From a virus (taxonomy: Duplodnaviria > Heunggongvirae > Uroviricota > Caudoviricetes), in the IMG/VR virus record IMGVR_UViG_2740892235_000008: DNA of 9,382 nt; one strand, given 5' to 3'. Below, piece after piece: positions 2,615-9,257 of the stretch (its first letter is position 1; each line of letters starts with the position of its first letter). A model generated the notes under the pieces. That model saw nothing but the letters and a program-made list of their open reading frames with translations. It was not told the DNA's origin and ran no database searches. A program made the translations under genes and the position numbers.

Positions 2615-3794
2615 TCACCCCCTGAATCCTGCCGGGATCTGGCTGTAGTCCACATTGTCGTAACTGGCTTTGAAGTACGGGTCTTCGCGTTTTTCTGTGT
2701 ACGTGCTGACGGACGGCGATAAGCGCAGGGAAAGCTCATCCCATTTTTCCCGCAGCTTCGACGGGCTGAGCACGTTNNNNNNNNNNATTTGAAGTACGGG
2801 TCTTCGCGTTTTTCGGTGTACGTGCTGACGGACGGCGATAAGCGCAGGGAAAGCTCATCCCATTTTTCCCGCAGCTTCGACGGGCTGAGCACGTTACGGC
2901 ACCAGAACGGATCGCGGCTGACGCGGCTGTACATCTCGCAGATTTGTTTATGAGTACGACCATCCTGCACACACATCAGGCGAATTTCGTTTGCCCAGGC
3001 TGTCCAGTTCGGTTCTTTGGGACGAACCACCTCGCCGTCACATTCGGCAGCCTGCTCGTACAGGGCGATGATTTTTTTCCAGAACCACTGTGCGCAGGTC
3101 AAATCATCCTGCGTCCCCCACTGGCGTTTTTTAGGGCTGAATACAACCGCATCAGGATGGCGAGTTAAAAAATCCTGTTCAGCCGTCTGCGTGTCCGGTT
3201 GCGAAGAGTCCGGACGAGAAGGTTTTTTATCTGACGGATCATGTTTTGATTTTACTGACGGATCCCCGCCAGATTCTGACGGGTGAAAACCCGCTTTTTT
3301 GCCAGATTTCGACGCATCAAATTTTGACGGGTCAGATTTTGATGCGTCAGATTTTGACGGGTCAGAATCTGACAGTTGAGAAAATGCCGCTGCCTGAAGC
3401 TTCGCAACGTTAAGCTGATAAACATTCGACGCATTGCGGTTACCCTGGCGACGCGCCTTACGCGTTAACCAGCCTTCTGCTTCCAGCCGTGCGATAGCCG
3501 TTCTGACGGTACTCATCCCCGCGCCAATCTGGCGTGCAATGGTTTCAATCGATGGCCAGCACACACCTTCGTCATTACTGAAATCAGCCAGGCGGGCCAT
3601 AATTGCCACGCTGGATAATTTCATGCCTGANNNNNNNNNNAGCCAATCTGACGGGCAATGGTTTCAATTGATGGCCAGCACACACCTTCGTCATTACTGA
3701 AATCAGCCAGGCGGGCCATAATTGCCACGCTGGATAATTTCATGCCTGACGCTGCGCAACCATCCCATACATAGCCGGTTAATTTAGTGCTCAT
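2615..3794 (-). CDS. phage replication initiator, O-like (N-terminal wHTH, Ser/Asp/Lys-rich repeat linker, C-terminal domain); spans two scaffold joins with duplicated flanks
   Basis: ATG 3792-3794 with GAGG Shine-Dalgarno 7 nt upstream; translation MSTKLTGYVWDGCAASGMKLSSVAIMARLADFSNDEGVCWPSIETIARQIG... In-frame through segment 2787-3630. True stop TGA at 2615-2617 found by hand translation (…DPYFKASYDNVDYSQIPAGFRG). The ORF-track frame after the 2777-2786 gap is an artefact. Real gene length is shorter than the coordinate span because 2672-2776 / 2789-2896 and 3520-3630 / 3641-3751 are duplicated overlaps. Confidence 0.6.
2777..2786. other. assembly gap (10 N)
   Basis: Run of n characters; about 105 bp either side are near-identical direct repeats. 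Confidence 0.95.
3224..3377. repeat. iteron-like tandem array (15-bp period; consensus CAGATTTTGACGNGT; 5 contiguous copies at 3303-3377 plus degenerate copies at 3224-3284); candidate replication origin inside the initiator gene
   Basis: Direct reading: cagatttcgacgcat / caaattttgacgggt / cagattttgatgcgt / cagattttgacgggt / cagaatctgacagtt, plus cagattctgacgggt at 3270-3284 and two CTGACGGATC-containing units at 3224-3265. They encode the SDxSK pentapeptide repeats of the linker. Lambda ori iterons lie inside O in the same way (established knowledge). Confidence 0.5.
3631..3640. other. assembly gap (10 N)
   Basis: Run of n characters; 3520-3630 and 3641-3751 are near-identical with 3 SNPs. 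Confidence 0.95.
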
Positions 3795-3803
3795 GACCGA
3801 CCT

Positions 3804-4142
3804 CTATTTCCCTGAATTTACGACGAAACTGTTCGAGCGGGCTGAAGCACTCATGCTCATAGCCTTCGCGGAGGTAGATAACACGTTGTGTTTCCGGCTC
3901 CCAACGAATGACTCTGACGGGCACTCCGTAGTGATCTTTGAACCAGCGGTTAACTTGTCGCAAAGGACTGTCTCCTTCTGCCGGTTGAAATCACCCACAG
4001 CCCACTCTGCAAAGCTGTGGGTTACAATTTCCCTGTCACCTGGTACATTTACTGCATAGCAATACTCCACCTTCGCTTTTCCACCCGGTACAGGAAGCGC
4101 AATCAGTTGCGAGCGACGGTAGTGTGTTGTTAAACTGTTCAT
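3804..4142 (-). CDS. hypothetical protein (112 aa) between cII-like and replication genes
   Basis: ORF-track ORF; ATG 4140-4142 overlaps the upstream stop as ATGA; stop is 9 nt before the replication gene ATG. Same strand as the whole operon. No recognisable family. Confidence 0.4.
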
Positions 4143-4690
4143 GCGTTAGTTTCTCCACAGTCACGACACGCCACGGCGCCCGGAGCTGCACACTCGCGGG
4201 CGTCACTACTTTCTGAAACGCAAAAGATTTTGTAGACCAGTGCTGCATGCTCCTGCAGCTTCGAAATTGAGAGGTACAGCTCATCGTTAATTGCTGTCTT
4301 CTCATGCGGTTCCACTACACCGTCTTCAATTGCTGAACGAATCTGTTTTGAATAACTGCCGATCTGTTCAATGACCTCCAGCAGGCGTTGGTTGATATCG
4401 GCGTTGTCCACATCCTCGACATCAGGAAGAGACACAAAGACGCCATTTGCAGACTGCGCCACAGCGTCAGCAATGAAGTGAGTTCCACCAGCACGTTGCA
4501 AAATCATTGCCCATCCCAGCGGGAAAATCTGATCGCCATCGGCACGAAGGCGGTTAAATAATGCGTTCTCTGTTACATCCAGCCAGTCAGCAGCTTCAGC
4601 GTACCCCCCCGGCAACGCTGCGATAGTTTTTCTGACAGCTTTCACGTACCACTCAGGCTGTTTTTCTACTTTCCAGTGATGCTTACCCAC
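4139..4690 (-). CDS. cII-like early regulator (HTH-containing, 183 aa)
   Basis: GTG start 4688-4690 preceded by a perfect AGGAGG with 6 nt spacing. Sits immediately downstream of the cro-like gene. Remote cII-like HTH pattern in …[19 protein letters not shown]. Function inferred from position and weak pattern. Confidence 0.55.
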
Positions 4691-5040: not shown

Positions 5041-5733
5041 ATGAACATAGGAAACCGAGTCAGACAACTTCGCCAAGCGAAGAACATGAAAATCGCCGAT
5101 CTCGCTGAAGCGATAGGAGTAGATGCGGCGAACATCTCGCGCTTAGAAACGGGTAAGCAAAAACAATTTACCGAACAAACACTGAGTAATATTGCCAGGA
5201 GCTTAGGTGTTGATATTGCTGATCTCTTTACCTCTGCCCACAAAAGTAATACTGTATATAAAAACAGTAATAATGAGGATGTTGCGCAGGTGAAGGATGT
5301 GTTCCGTATTGAAATGCTGGATATCAGTGCCAGTGCGGGAAATGGCCTTATCCAGGGCGGTGATGTCATTGATGTGATTCATGCCATCGAATACAGAACT
5401 GATAATGCTGTATCAATGTTCGGCGGACGACCAGCCAATCACATCAAAGTTATCAACGTTCGTGGGGACAGTATGTGTCCAACCATTGAGCCCGGAGATC
5501 TCATCTTCGTTGATGTCAGCATCAATCAGTTTGATGGTGATGGTATATATGTCTTTGGTTTTGATGACAAAATATACGTTAAAAGACTTCAAATGATTCC
5601 TGACAAACTGCTGGTGATTTCTGATAACCAGATTTACCGTGAATGGGGAATTACTAGCGAAAACGAACACCGATTCATGGTCTTTGGAAAGGTCTTAATC
5701 AGTCAGTCGCAAACCCTTAAGAGACATAATTAA
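5041..5733 (+). CDS. cI: CI-like phage repressor (N-terminal XRE HTH, C-terminal S24/LexA-type autopeptidase), 230 aa
   Basis: Translation has HTH (VRQLRQAKNMKIADLAEAIGVDAANISRLETGK), a candidate Ala-Gly cleavage site (ASAGNG) and the S24 catalytic motifs GDSM … KRL. Stop TAA 5731-5733. Confidence 0.9.
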   Translation: MNIGNRVRQLRQAKNMKIADLAEAIGVDAANISRLETGKQKQFTEQTLSNIARSLGVDIADLFTSAHKSNTVYKNSNNEDVAQVKDVFRIEMLDISASAGNGLIQGGDVIDVIHAIEYRTDNAVSMFGGRPANHIKVINVRGDSMCPTIEPGDLIFVDVSINQFDGDGIYVFGFDDKIYVKRLQMIPDKLLVISDNQIYREWGITSENEHRFMVFGKVLISQSQTLKRHN

Positions 5734-5742
5734 CCTCAATAT

Positions 5743-5765
5743 CCCATCCATCGGCCACCGAAAGG
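5743..5765 (+). terminator. rho-independent terminator downstream of cI-1
   Basis: GGCCACC-GAAA-GGTGGC hairpin followed by TTTTT (ggccaccgaaaggtggcttttt). Confidence 0.7.
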
Positions 5766-5777
5766 TGGCTTTTTATT

Positions 5778-5828
5778 ACCTATAAATTTGCATATCTCGC
5801 AAATATCACTTGCATATCTCGCAATTTA
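5778..5828 (+). promoter_or_regulatory. candidate OL/pL of module 1: two 15-bp direct repeats TTGCATATCTCGCAA (5778-5792, 5800-5814) overlapping a sigma70-like promoter (-35 TTGCAT 5800-5805, 17-bp spacer, -10 TATCTT 5823-5828)
   Basis: The repeats share the TTGC-N7-GCAA dyad and 13 of 15 bases with the OR site 5006-5020, consistent with the same repressor binding at both. Spacing of the two copies is 22 bp. Confidence 0.45.
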
Positions 5829-5920
5829 ATTTTATCTTTTGTTCCAGACCAACTACAGGATTACAACAAAATCTGGTTGCAACACGGTGCATGTGTCGTA
5901 AGCAGTCAGTAAATGTCAAA

Positions 5921-5985
5921 AACGAACAGGCAGGACGCCCACGAAGTAGCCGCCGGTGGCGTATGAATGACCGGATGATTCGTTA
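5921..5985 (+). ncRNA. conserved 65-nt structured element, copy 1 (candidate cis-acting leader RNA, nut/put-like, or small RNA)
   Basis: Same 65-nt sequence as 8186-8250 except in a 20-nt core. Outer inverted repeat AACGAA…TTCGTT. Inner stem CCGGT(N12)ACCGG here versus CCTGG(N12)CCAGG in copy 2, i.e. two compensatory base-pair changes preserve the stem. Confidence 0.4.
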
Positions 5986-6009
5986 AATACTATGTGTAAG
6001 AGAGCGCAA

Positions 6010-6213
6010 ATGAACCGTTATTTCACATGCTCGTTTTGTGGCGCAAACGAGCTGCAGGCAAAAAAAATCATCGCCAAAGGCGGAAAAGATGAAGTTGCTA
6101 TCTGCTCTGAGTGCGTAGTCTTGTGTGTCGGGGCATTAATCAATAGCAGCACAACTATTCGGTTCACACCAAATGAGAATGCGCCTTTAGATGCGCGGAA
6201 ATCTGGAGGTTAA
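6010..6213 (+). CDS. small ClpX-type C4 zinc-finger (ClpX N-terminal ZBD-like) protein, about 67 aa
   Basis: Translation MNRYFTCSFCGANELQAKKIIAKGGKDEVAICSECVVLC… matches the remembered ClpX N-terminal zinc-binding signature ([33 protein letters not shown]). Purine-rich AAGAGAG 5 nt before ATG 6010; the ORF-track ATG at 5992 has no Shine-Dalgarno. Confidence 0.55.
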   Translation: MNRYFTCSFCGANELQAKKIIAKGGKDEVAICSECVVLCVGALINSSTTIRFTPNENAPLDARKSGG

Positions 6214-6221
6214 AGAACAAA

Positions 6222-6497
6222 ATGAAAGTCCAGATTTTAAACAATAGTGGTGAAGTCGTTTGGTCATACGACATAGCCGCTCCTGTAGATCAGAGCGGCG
6301 ATAGCTGGACCAATGGGAAACATCAGATTATGGCTGGAGTTGTATTCTCTTTACGCCGTGCTTTGGAACAGGCTGAAGTCTTTCCATCAGACCCTGAATG
6401 GAAATGGCCTTTTTCTATTTGTCCAAATTCGGAGAGTACATTTCAGAAAATTGGTCAGAAAGTCGCACTCGAAGAGCATCAGCCAACTGTTTCCTGA
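6222..6497 (+). CDS. hypothetical protein (91 aa)
   Basis: ORF-track ORF. GGAGG at 6205-6209 but with 12-nt spacing to the ATG. Its 3' 83 nt overlap the convergent ORF at 6415-6660, so the true extent of one of the two is uncertain. Confidence 0.4.
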   Translation: MKVQILNNSGEVVWSYDIAAPVDQSGDSWTNGKHQIMAGVVFSLRRALEQAEVFPSDPEWKWPFSICPNSESTFQKIGQKVALEEHQPTVS

Positions 6498-6660
6498 TTT
6501 TTTCAGGTAACTCGTCGGCATCGCAGAAACAACAACGCTCGATCATGTTGAAAGCCGATTCGTAGAACTGTTTCTGCTGAGTGTCGCTGAGACAGGAAAA
6601 GAGCGACGTTACGATGATTTTATTAATTGCATTATCAAGTTCTTTTTCATCAAAAGTCAT
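6415..6660 (-). CDS. hypothetical protein (81 aa), convergent to the preceding ORFs
   Basis: ATG 6658-6660 with AAGGA Shine-Dalgarno about 7 nt upstream (revcomp of 6661-6680 is atacataaaaggaaaatcaa). Protein-like composition with a CCFCD motif. Confidence 0.45.
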   Translation of the reverse strand: MTFDEKELDNAINKIIVTSLFSCLSDTQQKQFYESAFNMIERCCFCDADELPEKIRKQLADALRVRLSDQFSEMYSPNLDK

Positions 6661-6689: not shown

Positions 6690-6803
6690 AAAGGATACCA
6701 CCGAGCCTGAAGTGGTGAAAAGACAGGCACATAACAGCTAAGTATTTTCAACCAGAGAGAATCCTTAGCGTTGTGGTGAATGCGGCTCAGCGCACGCGGG
6801 TTA
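6690..6803. repeat. conserved right-flank element, copy A (6725-6803 identical to 8930-9008; 6690-6724 similar with SNPs to 8896-8929)
   Basis: Direct comparison of the two stretches; copy A is truncated by the gap at 6804. Confidence 0.6.
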
Positions 6804-6813
6804 NNNNNNNNNN
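6804..6813. other. assembly gap (10 N)
   Basis: Run of n characters. Confidence 0.95.
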
Positions 6814-7128
6814 TTCCAGCAGGCGTTGGTTGATATCGGCGTTGTCCACATCCTCGACGTCAGGAAGAGACACAAAGACGCCATTTGCAGACTGCGCCAC
6901 TGCGTCAGCAATGAAGTGAGTTCCACCAGCACGTTGCAAAATCATTGCCCATCCCAGCGGGAAAATCTGATCGCCATCGGCACGAAGGCGGTTAAATAAT
7001 GCGTTCTCTGTTACATCCAGCCAGTCAGCTGCTTCAGCGTAACCACCCGGCAACTTTGCGATAGTTTTTCTGACAGCTTTCACGTACCACTCAGGCTGTT
7101 TTTCTACTTTCCAGTGATGCTTACCCAC
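6814..7128 (-). CDS. cII-like regulator, second copy, N-terminal part (3' end cut by gap)
   Basis: GTG 7126-7128 with GAGG Shine-Dalgarno 6 nt upstream; translation nearly identical to 4139-4690 (one A to K change seen). 6814-7128 repeats 4376-4690. Confidence 0.55.
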
Positions 7129-7165
7129 GGTTAGCCTCATCGTTCTGTGGTTTCTGTTAATCGAT

Positions 7166-7366
7166 TTATCCATTAGATTTTTCATAAAGCTCAGGTTTAA
7201 ATGGCAACCGTCCGCAAGTTCTATATGCAGCTTCTGCTGCACGTCCTTTTGGAATTAACTGGCCCGGACGGTTTCGCCACTGATAAACGGCTTCAGTTGT
7301 TATGCCGAAAAAAGCAGCAACTTTCTCAATACTGCCGAAGTAGCTTTCGATATCGTCAGTTGTCAT
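7166..7366 (-). CDS. cro: Cro-like small HTH protein (66 aa), immunity module 2
   Basis: ATG 7364-7366 preceded by TTTGGAGGGCGT, the same leader as cro-1. Translation …SIEKVAAFFGITTEAVYQWRNRPGQLIPKGRAAEAAY is a Cro/YdaS-type HTH pattern. Divergent from cI-2. Confidence 0.65.
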   Translation of the reverse strand: MTTDDIESYFGSIEKVAAFFGITTEAVYQWRNRPGQLIPKGRAAEAAYRTCGRLPFKPELYEKSNG

Positions 7367-7463: not shown

Positions 7464-8090
7464 ATGGAAACGGTTGGTCAGCGTATAAAAGCTCTGAGAA
7501 GAGTTACCAGAACGTCCCAGAAAGAATTGGGTAAATTTTGTGGAGTAAGCGACGTTGCTGTGGGGTACTGGGAGAAAGACATCAATACCCCTGGCGGGGA
7601 GGCACTTTCGAAATTAGCGAAGTTCTTCAATACGTCAATAGATTACATTCTTTATGGTGCTGAGTTTGAAGGCAAACTCGTCACAAACATGCGCAGAGTT
7701 CCTGTAATATCGTGGGTTCAGGCTGGGCAGTTTACTGAGTGCAGGGCAGCAGAAGTGTTTAGTGAAGTGGACAAGTGGGTAGATACATCATTAAAGGTTG
7801 GTGATAACTCATTTGCATTAGAGGTTAAAGGTGACTCCATGACTAACCCTAATGGCCTCCCAACAATACCAGAAGGCGCAACAGTGATTGTAGATCCAGA
7901 TGCAGAACCTCGTCATGGAAAAATAGTCATCGCTCGACTTGATGGAACAAACGAAGCTACAGTAAAAAAATTAGTCATCGATGGCCCTCAAAAGTTTTTA
8001 GTGCCATTAAATCCTCGGTATCCCAACATCCCTATCAATGGTAATTGCCTTATCATTGGTGTAGTCAAAGGAGTTCAATACGAACTCTAA
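7464..8090 (+). CDS. cI: CI-like phage repressor 2 (HTH plus S24 autopeptidase), 208 aa
   Basis: Translation has HTH (IKALRRVTRTSQKELGKFCGVSDVAVGYWEKD) and the S24 motifs GDSM … KKL. Sequence is unrelated to cI-1 apart from fold-level motifs. Confidence 0.9.
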   Translation: METVGQRIKALRRVTRTSQKELGKFCGVSDVAVGYWEKDINTPGGEALSKLAKFFNTSIDYILYGAEFEGKLVTNMRRVPVISWVQAGQFTECRAAEVFSEVDKWVDTSLKVGDNSFALEVKGDSMTNPNGLPTIPEGATVIVDPDAEPRHGKIVIARLDGTNEATVKKLVIDGPQKFLVPLNPRYPNIPINGNCLIIGVVKGVQYEL

Positions 8091-8172: not shown

Positions 8173-8185
8173 TTATATCAAAGAT

Positions 8186-8250
8186 AACGAACAGGCAGGA
8201 CGCCCACGAAGTAGCCGCCTGGGGCATATGAAGTCCAGGATGATTCGTTA
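8186..8250 (+). ncRNA. conserved 65-nt structured element, copy 2
   Basis: See copy 1; starts only about 6-8 nt after the predicted pL2 transcription start. Confidence 0.4.
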
Positions 8251-8254
8251 GCAA

Positions 8255-8317: not shown

Positions 8318-8809
8318 CTACAGATTGCCGTTAAGTTTTCTGGACAACTCCTCAATGGATGGAGGCGATACGTAATCCGGATTTTTATTCATCAGAAACT
8401 TATTTTCACAGTGGAGGCACCTGCTTTTATGAAAAAGCTCATCTTCGCTAACCGGGAATGGTTGAAGTATCGATACTATCTTTTGTCCAAAACATTTTGG
8501 GCAAAGATGCATGGTTATGCTGCCACCGTTCACGATTACCTCCTTCGAGTATACAAAAGTACCCGACTCAAGTTGGTTAAGGATATAGCCTTCCGTCTGA
8601 GCCTCAAAGTTTTCGAATTCTGCAATTTTAGCTTTGAGAGAAGCATTTATTTCTTGATAAGAGCCCACCAGTTCAACGAGAGACACGCATTCGCGCTGAA
8701 TAGACGCAAGCTTTGAGTTCAGCTCACCAATAGCCGCATTTACTTCAGCTTGAGTTTTTGCCTCGTTCATTAGTTTTGCAATCTGGGCTGTTTCACGAAT
8801 AGCCGTCAT
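8318..8809 (-). CDS. hypothetical cargo protein, about 163 aa: N-terminal predicted coiled coil, C-terminal CxxC…CxxC zinc-ribbon-like motif
   Basis: In-frame ATG 8807-8809 (MTAIRETAQIAKLMNEAKTQAEV…) is the first start downstream of the shared flank; the ORF-track start at 9097 would read through the shared flank. The Shine-Dalgarno is weak and a later ATG at 8768-8770 (MNEAK) is possible. C-terminal …HLCPKCFGQKIV…CLHCENKF…; stop 8318-8320; own terminator at 8255-8279. Confidence 0.5.
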   Translation of the reverse strand: MTAIRETAQIAKLMNEAKTQAEVNAAIGELNSKLASIQRECVSLVELVGSYQEINASLKAKIAEFENFEAQTEGYILNQLESGTFVYSKEVIVNGGSITMHLCPKCFGQKIVSILQPFPVSEDELFHKSRCLHCENKFLMNKNPDYVSPPSIEELSRKLNGNL

Positions 8810-8847
8810 TGCTGCCGTTAATTCAGCGATCACATTGAATACTCTTA

Positions 8848-8901
8848 TTGTTGTTGGGGATATCCAGATTAACCGAATCCTTGTTGTTGGGGAATAACCA
8901 G
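8848..8901. repeat. two about 20-bp direct repeats TTGTTGTTGGGGA(T/A)A(T/A)CCAG (8848-8867, 8881-8901) upstream of the cargo gene start
   Basis: Direct reading. Lies in the putative promoter region of the minus-strand gene, 33-bp period. Confidence 0.5.
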
Positions 8902-9008
8902 GTCCACCTCGCCTGATGTGGCTAAAAGCAGGCACATAACAGCTAAGTATTTTCAACCAGAGAGAATCCTTAGCGTTGTGGTGAATGCGGCTCAGCGCAC
9001 GCGGGTTA
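8896..9008. repeat. conserved right-flank element, copy B
   Basis: 8930-9008 identical to 6725-6803; preceding about 34 bp similar with SNPs. Confidence 0.6.
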
Positions 9009-9120
9009 AGGTTGAGGCTGACAGTCGACCTTCTGTGGATACCCACCCGCCTGGTGTGCAACCTTCGCCAGGCACCGGGAGGCACCCGGCACCACAACTT
9101 TATGCTGTGTGTAGTCCTGG

Positions 9121-9166
9121 CGGTACCAGTTTGTACCCTTGCTTCCGGCTGGTACCGTCCTTTTTT
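9121..9166 (+). terminator. large hairpin plus T-tract (CGGTACCAG-N19-CTGGTACCG then TCCTTTTTT); candidate plus-strand terminator
   Basis: 9-bp perfect inverted repeat followed by a T6 run. An allelic copy at 9258-9304 keeps the stem and carries a CTCTTTTT tract. Confidence 0.5.
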
Positions 9167-9247
9167 GCAAAACAGAGAAGAGCATCACCGGACGACGGGC
9201 TCATAACCCAATCCATCCGGGCGGCTGCCACCGCAGGTGTTCTTCTC

Positions 9248-9257
9248 NNNNNNNNNN
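9248..9257. other. assembly gap (10 N)
   Basis: Run of n characters; 9119-9247 and 9258-9382 are near-identical. Confidence 0.95.

Follow-up and report, generated by a model that had tools for sequence, protein, structure and literature searches.

Gene order and control elements around the ZBD gene

The window (the whole stretch of DNA analysed here, 9,382 nt of a Caudoviricetes virus recorded in IMG/VR as IMGVR_UViG_2740892235_000008) contains a gene for a 67-aa protein that resembles the zinc-binding domain (ZBD) found at the N-terminus of ClpX, situated downstream of a CI-type repressor gene and a structured leader RNA (Table 1). Since the scaffold that makes up the window is interrupted by seven runs of 10 N, the gene order was verified against complete genomes. 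E. coli 00-3076 has the region as a prophage, located at the icd/e14 attachment site and with SfV-, SfII-, and CPS-53-like genes. The order on the first strand is Q, RusA, Dam, PerC, replication protein, DUF4222, YmfL (CII-like), and a Cro-like gene; on the opposite strand, it is the CI-like repressor, the ZBD gene, an orf33-like gene, YfdP, YfdQ, an HD hydrolase, Xis, and Int. The host element is an e14/SfV-like prophage. The window also holds near-duplicate pieces with RusA-like and LexA-like ORFs, a YmfL/CII-like gene that occurs twice, and a second, different immunity region with its own Cro and CI.

Table 1. Positions of genes, control elements, and other features in the window
Feature	Position	Strand	Basis or remark
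Runs of 10 N	891-900, 1141-1150, 1504-1513, 2777-2786, 3631-3640, 6804-6813, 9248-9257
RusA-like and LexA-like ORFs, near-duplicate pieces	708-2157
YmfL/CII-like gene, two occurrences	4139-4690, 6787-7242
OR site TTGCTTATCACGCAA	5006-5020		cro-cI intergenic region
CI-type repressor gene	5041-5733	+	Pfam, PHROG; directly upstream of the leader/ZBD region
Intrinsic terminator after cI	5753-5777	+	terminator at 5753-5770; stem, then TTTTTATT
Two identical operator-like sites TTGCATATCTCGCAA	5788-5802, 5810-5824	+	match to OR; read as OL
Putative PL promoter	5810-5838	+	by eye; -35 TTGCAT 5810-5815, -10 TATCTT 5833-5838
ORF rejected as an N-like peptide (MCRKQ...RRWRMNDRMIR)	5892-5987
Conserved leader RNA, three helices, ~70 nt	5919-5988	+	covariance model, 92.1 bits
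ORF with internal ATG at 6010	5992-6213	+	ORF list of the window
Shine-Dalgarno-like AAGAGAG	5998-6004	+	read from sequence; 5 nt 5' of ATG 6010
Gene for the 67-aa stand-alone ClpX-type ZBD protein	6010-6213	+	Pfam, PDB, fold model, selection
ZBD core, about residues 5-47	6022-6150	+	part of the 67-aa protein
GGAGGT, possible ribosome-binding site of the next gene	6205-6210	+	read from sequence; in the last ZBD codons
Next operon gene, 91 aa, SfV orf33 family	6222-6497	+	PHROG (phrog_3195); ATG 6222
81-aa ORF	6415-6660	-	convergent on the early operon
Cro, second immunity region	7166-7366
CI, second immunity region	7464-8090
Second leader RNA copy	8184-8253	+	covariance model; just after a repressor gene and operators
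Exact rrn-type boxA GCTCTTTAACAA	8281-8292	+	28 nt after the second leader RNA copy
259-aa ORF	8318-9097	-	opposite the second early operon
STnc100 sRNA match	8945-9168	+	Rfam, sub-threshold

The CI-type repressor, which combines an HTH with a self-cleaving S24 peptidase, is recognized by Pfam (Peptidase_S24, E 6e-19; HTH_3/HTH_26) and falls among the transcriptional repressors of PHROG. Its gene is followed by an intrinsic terminator with a 7-bp stem, five pairs of which are G-C, and a terminator is annotated at the same place after cI in SfII and SfV. Both of the operator-like sites downstream match the OR site; these three are the only exact matches to TTGC-N7-GCAA in the window, against 0.37 expected, and two of 200 shuffled versions of the window reach three matches. 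The hexamers of the putative PL promoter are separated by a 17-nt spacer. A consensus promoter scan did not call PL, and the hexamers chosen by eye are therefore uncertain. In phage Eeyore, TTTTATCTT is also found upstream of the leader RNA, as at the putative PL.

The layout recurs in Salmonella prophages with a ZBD homolog, whose operators at OR and downstream of cI are variants specific to them, and in Salmonella phages with a different operator sequence the ZBD gene is again the first ORF after the repressor gene. In the second immunity region of the window, the operators are of a quite different sequence (ACTAAG-N5-CTTAG) and are likewise repeated after the cI gene. Because operators recur after cI in Salmonella and in this second immunity region, we infer that the segment 5788-5838 represents OL/PL and that the ZBD gene is the first ORF of a CI-repressed leftward early operon. 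Expression early after induction, as proposed in the initial annotation, is likely, since the gene follows the cI terminator and two copies of an operator that match OR.

The orf33-family gene that follows also occurs in phages without the ZBD gene. Its homologs form a narrow ORFan family, and the AlphaFold model of its product (pLDDT 47) is unusable. The end of this gene is overlapped by 83 nt by the convergent 81-aa ORF, which matches phrog_3311 (E 3e-55) and has a good ribosome-binding site and no PGAP call; it may be a gene that is expressed in the lysogen. A convergent gene also lies directly after the ZBD gene in the Salmonella loci. The 259-aa ORF has a coiled-coil-like middle and a C-terminal CPKC...CLHC zinc-ribbon-like motif, and had no match in PADLOC. 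The STnc100 match scores 40.3 bits (E 4e-6) against a gathering score of 47.

A free-standing ClpX-type C4 zinc finger

The N-terminus MN(R/N/S)Y(F/Y)TCSFCG is common to all relatives found. Because the N-termini of the homologs agree and AAGAGAG precedes the ATG at the appropriate place, the start of the ZBD gene is assigned to 6010, as had been proposed earlier; the PGAP start at 5992 is probably six codons too long. In the 73-aa form, residues 12-46 match the Pfam profile zf-C4_ClpX (PF06689) with 41.3 bits (E 1.4e-10), above its gathering score of 27 bits. The closest sequence matches in the PDB are exclusively ClpX ZBDs (2ds5, 1ovx; E about 1e-4). An AlphaFold model of the 67-aa protein, built on 18 sequences, predicts a β-hairpin and a C-terminal helix with high confidence (pLDDT 80-95 over residues 1-50), and the C-terminal tail of about 20 residues (52-67) is predicted to be disordered (pLDDT below 50). 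The top Foldseek matches of this model are 9a5x, an integrative CLPX-CLPP model, and the ClpX ZBD crystal structures 2ds5, 2ds6, and 2ds8; they superpose with an rmsd of 1.2-1.9 Å over 42-45 residues (TM 0.8 on the target) at 36-38% identity. The matches after the ClpX ZBD group have E-values about 100-fold worse.

No AAA+ module was found in the 67-aa protein. The NCBIfam ClpX models (TIGR00382 and PRK05342) cover only the N-domain (the first ~45 residues) and score 26.6 and 23.5 bits, far below their cut-offs of 359 and 371, and searches with PADLOC and NCBIfam gave no family for the protein other than ClpX's own N-domain. The initial annotation had described a phage-encoded, stand-alone ClpX-type ZBD without AAA+ module. 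The profile match, the PDB matches, and the predicted fold bear this out, as do the four cysteines of the two CxxC pairs (C7, C10, C32, and C35), which are invariant in 13 and in 18 aligned sequences. The description had also held that both the residues and the spacing agree with ClpX. This stands for the residues, CSFCG and ICxECV; the spacing is similar only, since the gap between C10 and C32 is 21 residues as against 18 in E. coli ClpX. The difference is due to a three-residue insertion in the β-hairpin (AKGGKDEVA versus AGPSVY in ClpX), a spacing that the zf-C4_ClpX profile tolerates. On the combined evidence of sequence and predicted structure, the protein is confirmed as a free-standing ClpX-type C4 zinc finger. 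It shares with the E. coli ClpX ZBD the two CxxC pairs, the CSFCG and ICxECV..LC motifs, and the hairpin-helix fold, and is unlike it in the missing motor, the longer hairpin, the disordered tail, and the loss of two residues of the binding pocket, H23 and I47.

C7, F9, C10, I31, C32, C35, and C39 are invariant in 18 single-domain relatives, down to 34% identity, and A22 (A30 in ClpX) is kept in at least 90% of the sequences. The KGGKDE insertion in the hairpin is conserved within the phage family. Between the versions of E. coli, Salmonella, and an IMG/VR contig (L123), dN is 0.19-0.33 and dS ranges from 0.69 to above 2, with synonymous sites saturated or nearly so; dN/dS is 0.14-0.35 where computable. 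These values indicate that the gene is under purifying selection, which is strong on the first 50 codons. In some genomes, variants are frameshifted or fused, and the C-terminal tail is variable. Because the identity to the ClpX ZBD is so limited, the protein is, judged from its sequence, an old, diverged relative and not one that was copied from the host domain recently.

When 1.84 billion representatives were searched exhaustively with HMMER, no more than 15 proteins had E below 1e-10. Among these, one is a spurious eukaryote-like repeat protein, two have four tandem ZBD copies, and the others are short and enterobacterial where the source could be traced. The matches beyond these 15 are proteins with 2-4 tandem ZBD copies, and most matches of the whole search are proteins of 90-300 aa with 2-4 tandem ZBDs. 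Bacterial ClpX-type zinc fingers without AAA+ (known by RefSeq name and as PHROG 5259 and 20296) share the domain and the stand-alone architecture with the phage protein. They have one or several fingers. The phage family differs in being confined to a narrow enterobacterial group and in its fixed place in the early operon. The gene is present in 131 of 5426 complete E. coli genomes, and its Salmonella form is indexed in 13,265 blocks of an assembly collection. In RefSeq, the protein already bears the name "ClpX C4-type zinc finger protein" (WP_250559297.1), and it falls in PHROG 5259 and 20296, both without assigned function. The identification is thus correct, yet the label is already in public annotation. 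In a literature search, neither stand-alone nor phage-encoded ClpX zinc fingers turned up in any paper.

A conserved leader RNA and a variable first-gene slot

The leader RNA lies between the promoter/operator region and the start of the ZBD gene. Its identity is 86-98% in SfV, SfII, mEp460, Eeyore, and two Salmonella phages (118970_sal3 and F1055), no matter which gene comes next, 97% in ST64B, and 82-88% in phages of Yersinia, Pectobacterium, Pantoea, Providencia, and Aeromonas; it is also found in Shigella and Klebsiella phages. The alignment of 44 distinct copies has 26 invariant columns and three helices, namely a closing helix and two short hairpins, with highly conserved unpaired stretches (CCCACGAAGUAGCCG, GGCAUAUGAA, and GGAUGA). 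Compensatory double changes are seen in nine of the 13 pairs (for example CCGGU/ACCGG, CCUGG/CCAGG, CCACC/GGUGG, and CCGAC/GUCGG). In the alignment, 97.4% of cells are paired, versus 22-46% with slid partners, and none of 500 shuffles reached the covariation score. The conserved G-U pairs would fit the + strand, which is that of the PL transcript. Single-sequence folding of the 173-nt leader gave no signal (z = +1.4); the structure is visible only through sequence comparison.

Rfam searches with the whole window and with a 131-nt slice gave no match for the leader RNA, and a sequence-string search of papers for its core was also without a match. Of 5426 complete E. coli genomes, 1838 (about a third) have the RNA, which is never annotated; in K-12, it is situated in e14 between ymfK and ymfJ. 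About 96 nt upstream of the RNA, and on its strand, lies the end of a gene for a CI-like S24 repressor in 61 of 89 sampled viral loci.

The phages with the leader RNA have no recognisable N. For this reason, and because the RNA stands right where the early operon begins, it is hypothesized to act in processive antitermination; alternatively, it may be a processed small RNA or an mRNA-stability element. In the window, the second copy is followed by a boxA that has a short imperfect hairpin before it and suggests that antitermination there may depend on Nus factors. The same boxA is found in 21 of 136 fetched loci, at the same distance after the RNA element in the loci checked (L019, L052, and L057), and no boxA follows the copy upstream of the ZBD gene. 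The RNA may matter more than the ZBD gene. It marks the start of the leftward early operon in roughly a third of the complete E. coli genomes and in many temperate phages, and may explain terminator read-through in lambdoid phages without N.

The leader RNA is distinct from the put antiterminator RNA of HK022. The covariance model has no match in the early region of HK022 at E up to 10, and putL and putR of HK022 are two long stem-loops in a V shape (PMC9378689), unlike the arrangement of helices in the leader RNA. The ORF with an arginine-rich tail that overlaps the RNA was considered and rejected as a source of an N-like peptide, since its Salmonella counterpart lacks a start codon and is preceded by an in-frame TAG, and compensatory changes in the conserved stretch are of the RNA type. 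One subtype of the leader RNA, marked by an ACCACC/GGUGG closing helix, precedes a first gene for a protein of ~61 aa with an arginine-rich start (MEKLTRRRFKTFR...). It was seen in loci L111 and L014 and 13 others (IMG/VR; mEp237-like) and matches PHROG 22279 and 31129, both without assigned function. Its MEKLTRRRFKTFR stretch recalls the RNA-binding motif of lambdoid N proteins.

The gene that follows the leader RNA varies. The ZBD gene is missing from SfV, SfII, and E. coli S56, which share the repressor, the operators, and the orf33-like gene with the window. In a survey of about 95 viral contigs, sampled only via the upstream RNA element, 15 loci have the 61-aa arginine-rich protein as the product of the first ORF after the RNA, 11 have an orf33-like protein, 10 the product of another small ORF, and 7 the ZBD protein; the remainder include many singletons. 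All the proteins of this slot that were tested fall in PHROGs without assigned function. ZBD cassettes are found behind promoter/immunity contexts of at least three kinds, and the junction sequence is the same in each. From these comparisons, the slot is a hypervariable site of small accessory ORFs, with the pattern of dispensable accessory genes, and such a site fits a dispensable function in host interference.

A possible ClpX decoy and other explanations

The phage protein, which should appear once the repressor has been cleaved, might act as a free copy of the docking domain of ClpX. In this role, it would be a competitor of ClpX for adaptors (e.g., SspB and RssB), and for tethering partners such as UmuD and substrates that depend on the N-domain, so that a subset of ClpXP proteolysis would be damped early in lytic growth. 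The phage could benefit through protection of a labile phage protein, or through a block of protease-triggered host responses, e.g., the degradation of an antitoxin such as MqsA. By analogy with isolated ClpX ZBD, we regard this competition for docking partners as the likeliest of the mechanisms considered, if still tentative and open to considerable doubt. The stronger form of the proposal is rather unlikely: a first natural free-ZBD decoy that shuts off the N-domain-dependent branch of ClpXP and leaves direct substrates untouched. The affected branch would then comprise RssB/sigma-S, SspB, UmuD/UmuD', MqsA-type antitoxins, and some replication or transposition proteins, with the result that phage functions are protected or a protease-triggered defence is disarmed.

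Several biochemical findings form the background of the decoy proposal. The isolated ClpX ZBD, added in trans, inhibits RssB-dependent degradation of sigma-S by ClpXP in vitro (PMC7226468). This titration by a free ZBD without motor is the mechanism proposed here; the difference is that the inhibitor was a laboratory fragment of the host protein in micromolar excess, whereas the phage gene is natural and diverged. The hydrophobic pocket of the ZBD dimer (F16 and I46, mature numbering) overlaps the lambda O site, and its region is where SspB, RssB, and trigger factor bind (PMC7804408). Delivery of the MqsA antitoxin goes via the ClpX N-domain and needs L12, L13, and H23 (PMC8808172). Small phage proteins that inhibit host AAA+ proteases are also known, namely T4 PinA and T7 gp4.5, which act on Lon, and lambda RexB, which acts on ClpP-dependent proteolysis; they are a counter to protease-gated toxins, and their proposed benefit is that phage proteins are protected or that toxins are not activated by the protease (PMC10286901). 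None of the three is related to the phage ZBD in sequence or fold. RexB also differs in being a membrane protein made in the lysogen, in which the phage ZBD gene appears to be repressed. The rexB gene is located in the lambda immunity region, adjoining cI.

With the pocket residues mapped from two studies (PMC8808172; PMC7804408; Met1 numbering), F17 of ClpX corresponds to an identical and invariant F9 in the phage protein, and A30, at which A30S is neutral in ClpX, to an identical and nearly invariant A22. L12 and L13 are replaced by Y4 and F5, which retain the hydrophobic character and are aromatic. H23 is altered to L15 (M, R, or Q in relatives), I47 to the smaller A42 (A, T, V, I, L, or K in relatives), and Y35 to A30. 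The alignment thus indicates that the adaptor/substrate pocket is only partly conserved. The loss of H23 and I47, together with the longer hairpin, counts against the decoy.

The same differences suit an explanation in which the fold is a small zinc-stabilised dimerisation or protein-binding module whose target is unrelated to ClpXP; it might bind a protein of host defence, a regulator, or some other protein of the phage. Many proteins other than ClpX have ZBD-type fingers, as the tandem proteins of the HMMER search show, so a role related to ClpX does not follow from the fold alone. At key positions, the pocket residues are not those of ClpX (PMC8808172), the conserved KGGKDE insertion suggests a surface of the family's own, and the other slot genes are unrelated ORFans without assigned function. 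Against this stand the ClpX-typical residues that are kept although they are not ligands (in CSFCG, K-I/L-I-A, ICxECV, and LC), and no conserved partner gene points to another target. Such a module is a real possibility, though a doubtful one. The protein could instead act on ClpX itself, through mixed N-domain dimers or docking to the hexamer, so that the platform is disabled or re-targeted. The ClpX ZBD is a constitutive dimer (PMC7226468; PMC8808172), and the helix and hairpin of the fold are predicted with high confidence. The N-domains of the hexamer are, however, at high local concentration, which would make exchange with a partner of 36-38% identity unlikely, and this explanation is accordingly rated as improbable.

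The position of the ZBD gene as the first gene after a structured RNA is that of the gene after nutL or putL in lambda and HK022 (PMC9378689), and the protein might thus be the partner of the leader RNA, an RNA-binding or antitermination factor in the position of N. We consider this very improbable, as only 7 of about 95 independently sampled loci have the ZBD gene after the RNA, the RNA occurs with many unrelated first genes, and a Pfam search found no known RNA-binding domain in the protein, which also has no arginine-rich motif. That the gene is a decaying, functionless fragment of a captured clpX would agree with the short product, the variable tail, and the frameshifted or fused variants of some genomes. 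This is hardly credible in view of the strong purifying selection on the first 50 codons, the invariant cysteines, the position conserved across genera, and the low identity to host clpX.

If the decoy proposal is true, it would represent a new kind of phage control over a host AAA+ protease, in which the docking domain is copied instead of the enzyme being bound. Such control would be selective for adaptor-dependent substrates, and the protein would be a natural tool to tell ClpXP proteolysis that depends on the N-domain from direct proteolysis. The means by which some prophages keep labile early proteins stable, or keep protease-gated toxins inactive, could also be explained in this way. If it is false, the ZBD gene is another small accessory ORF with a known domain.

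As for the client of a decoy, the initial annotation had named the replication initiator of the same window as an obvious candidate. The replication protein is HTH_36/DnaD-like by Pfam, and the Pfam search gave no homology to lambda O. Its N-terminus, MSTKLTG, presumably resembles the N-terminal ClpX signals of lambda O and Dps only loosely; such signals were reportedly described by Flynn et al. in 2003. E. coli S56 has the same cI-replication module without the ZBD gene, and in Salmonella the ZBD gene is found alongside two types of replication protein (HTH_36 and Phg_2220_C). These observations argue against a specific link, and the proposal of the replication initiator as client is unsupported.
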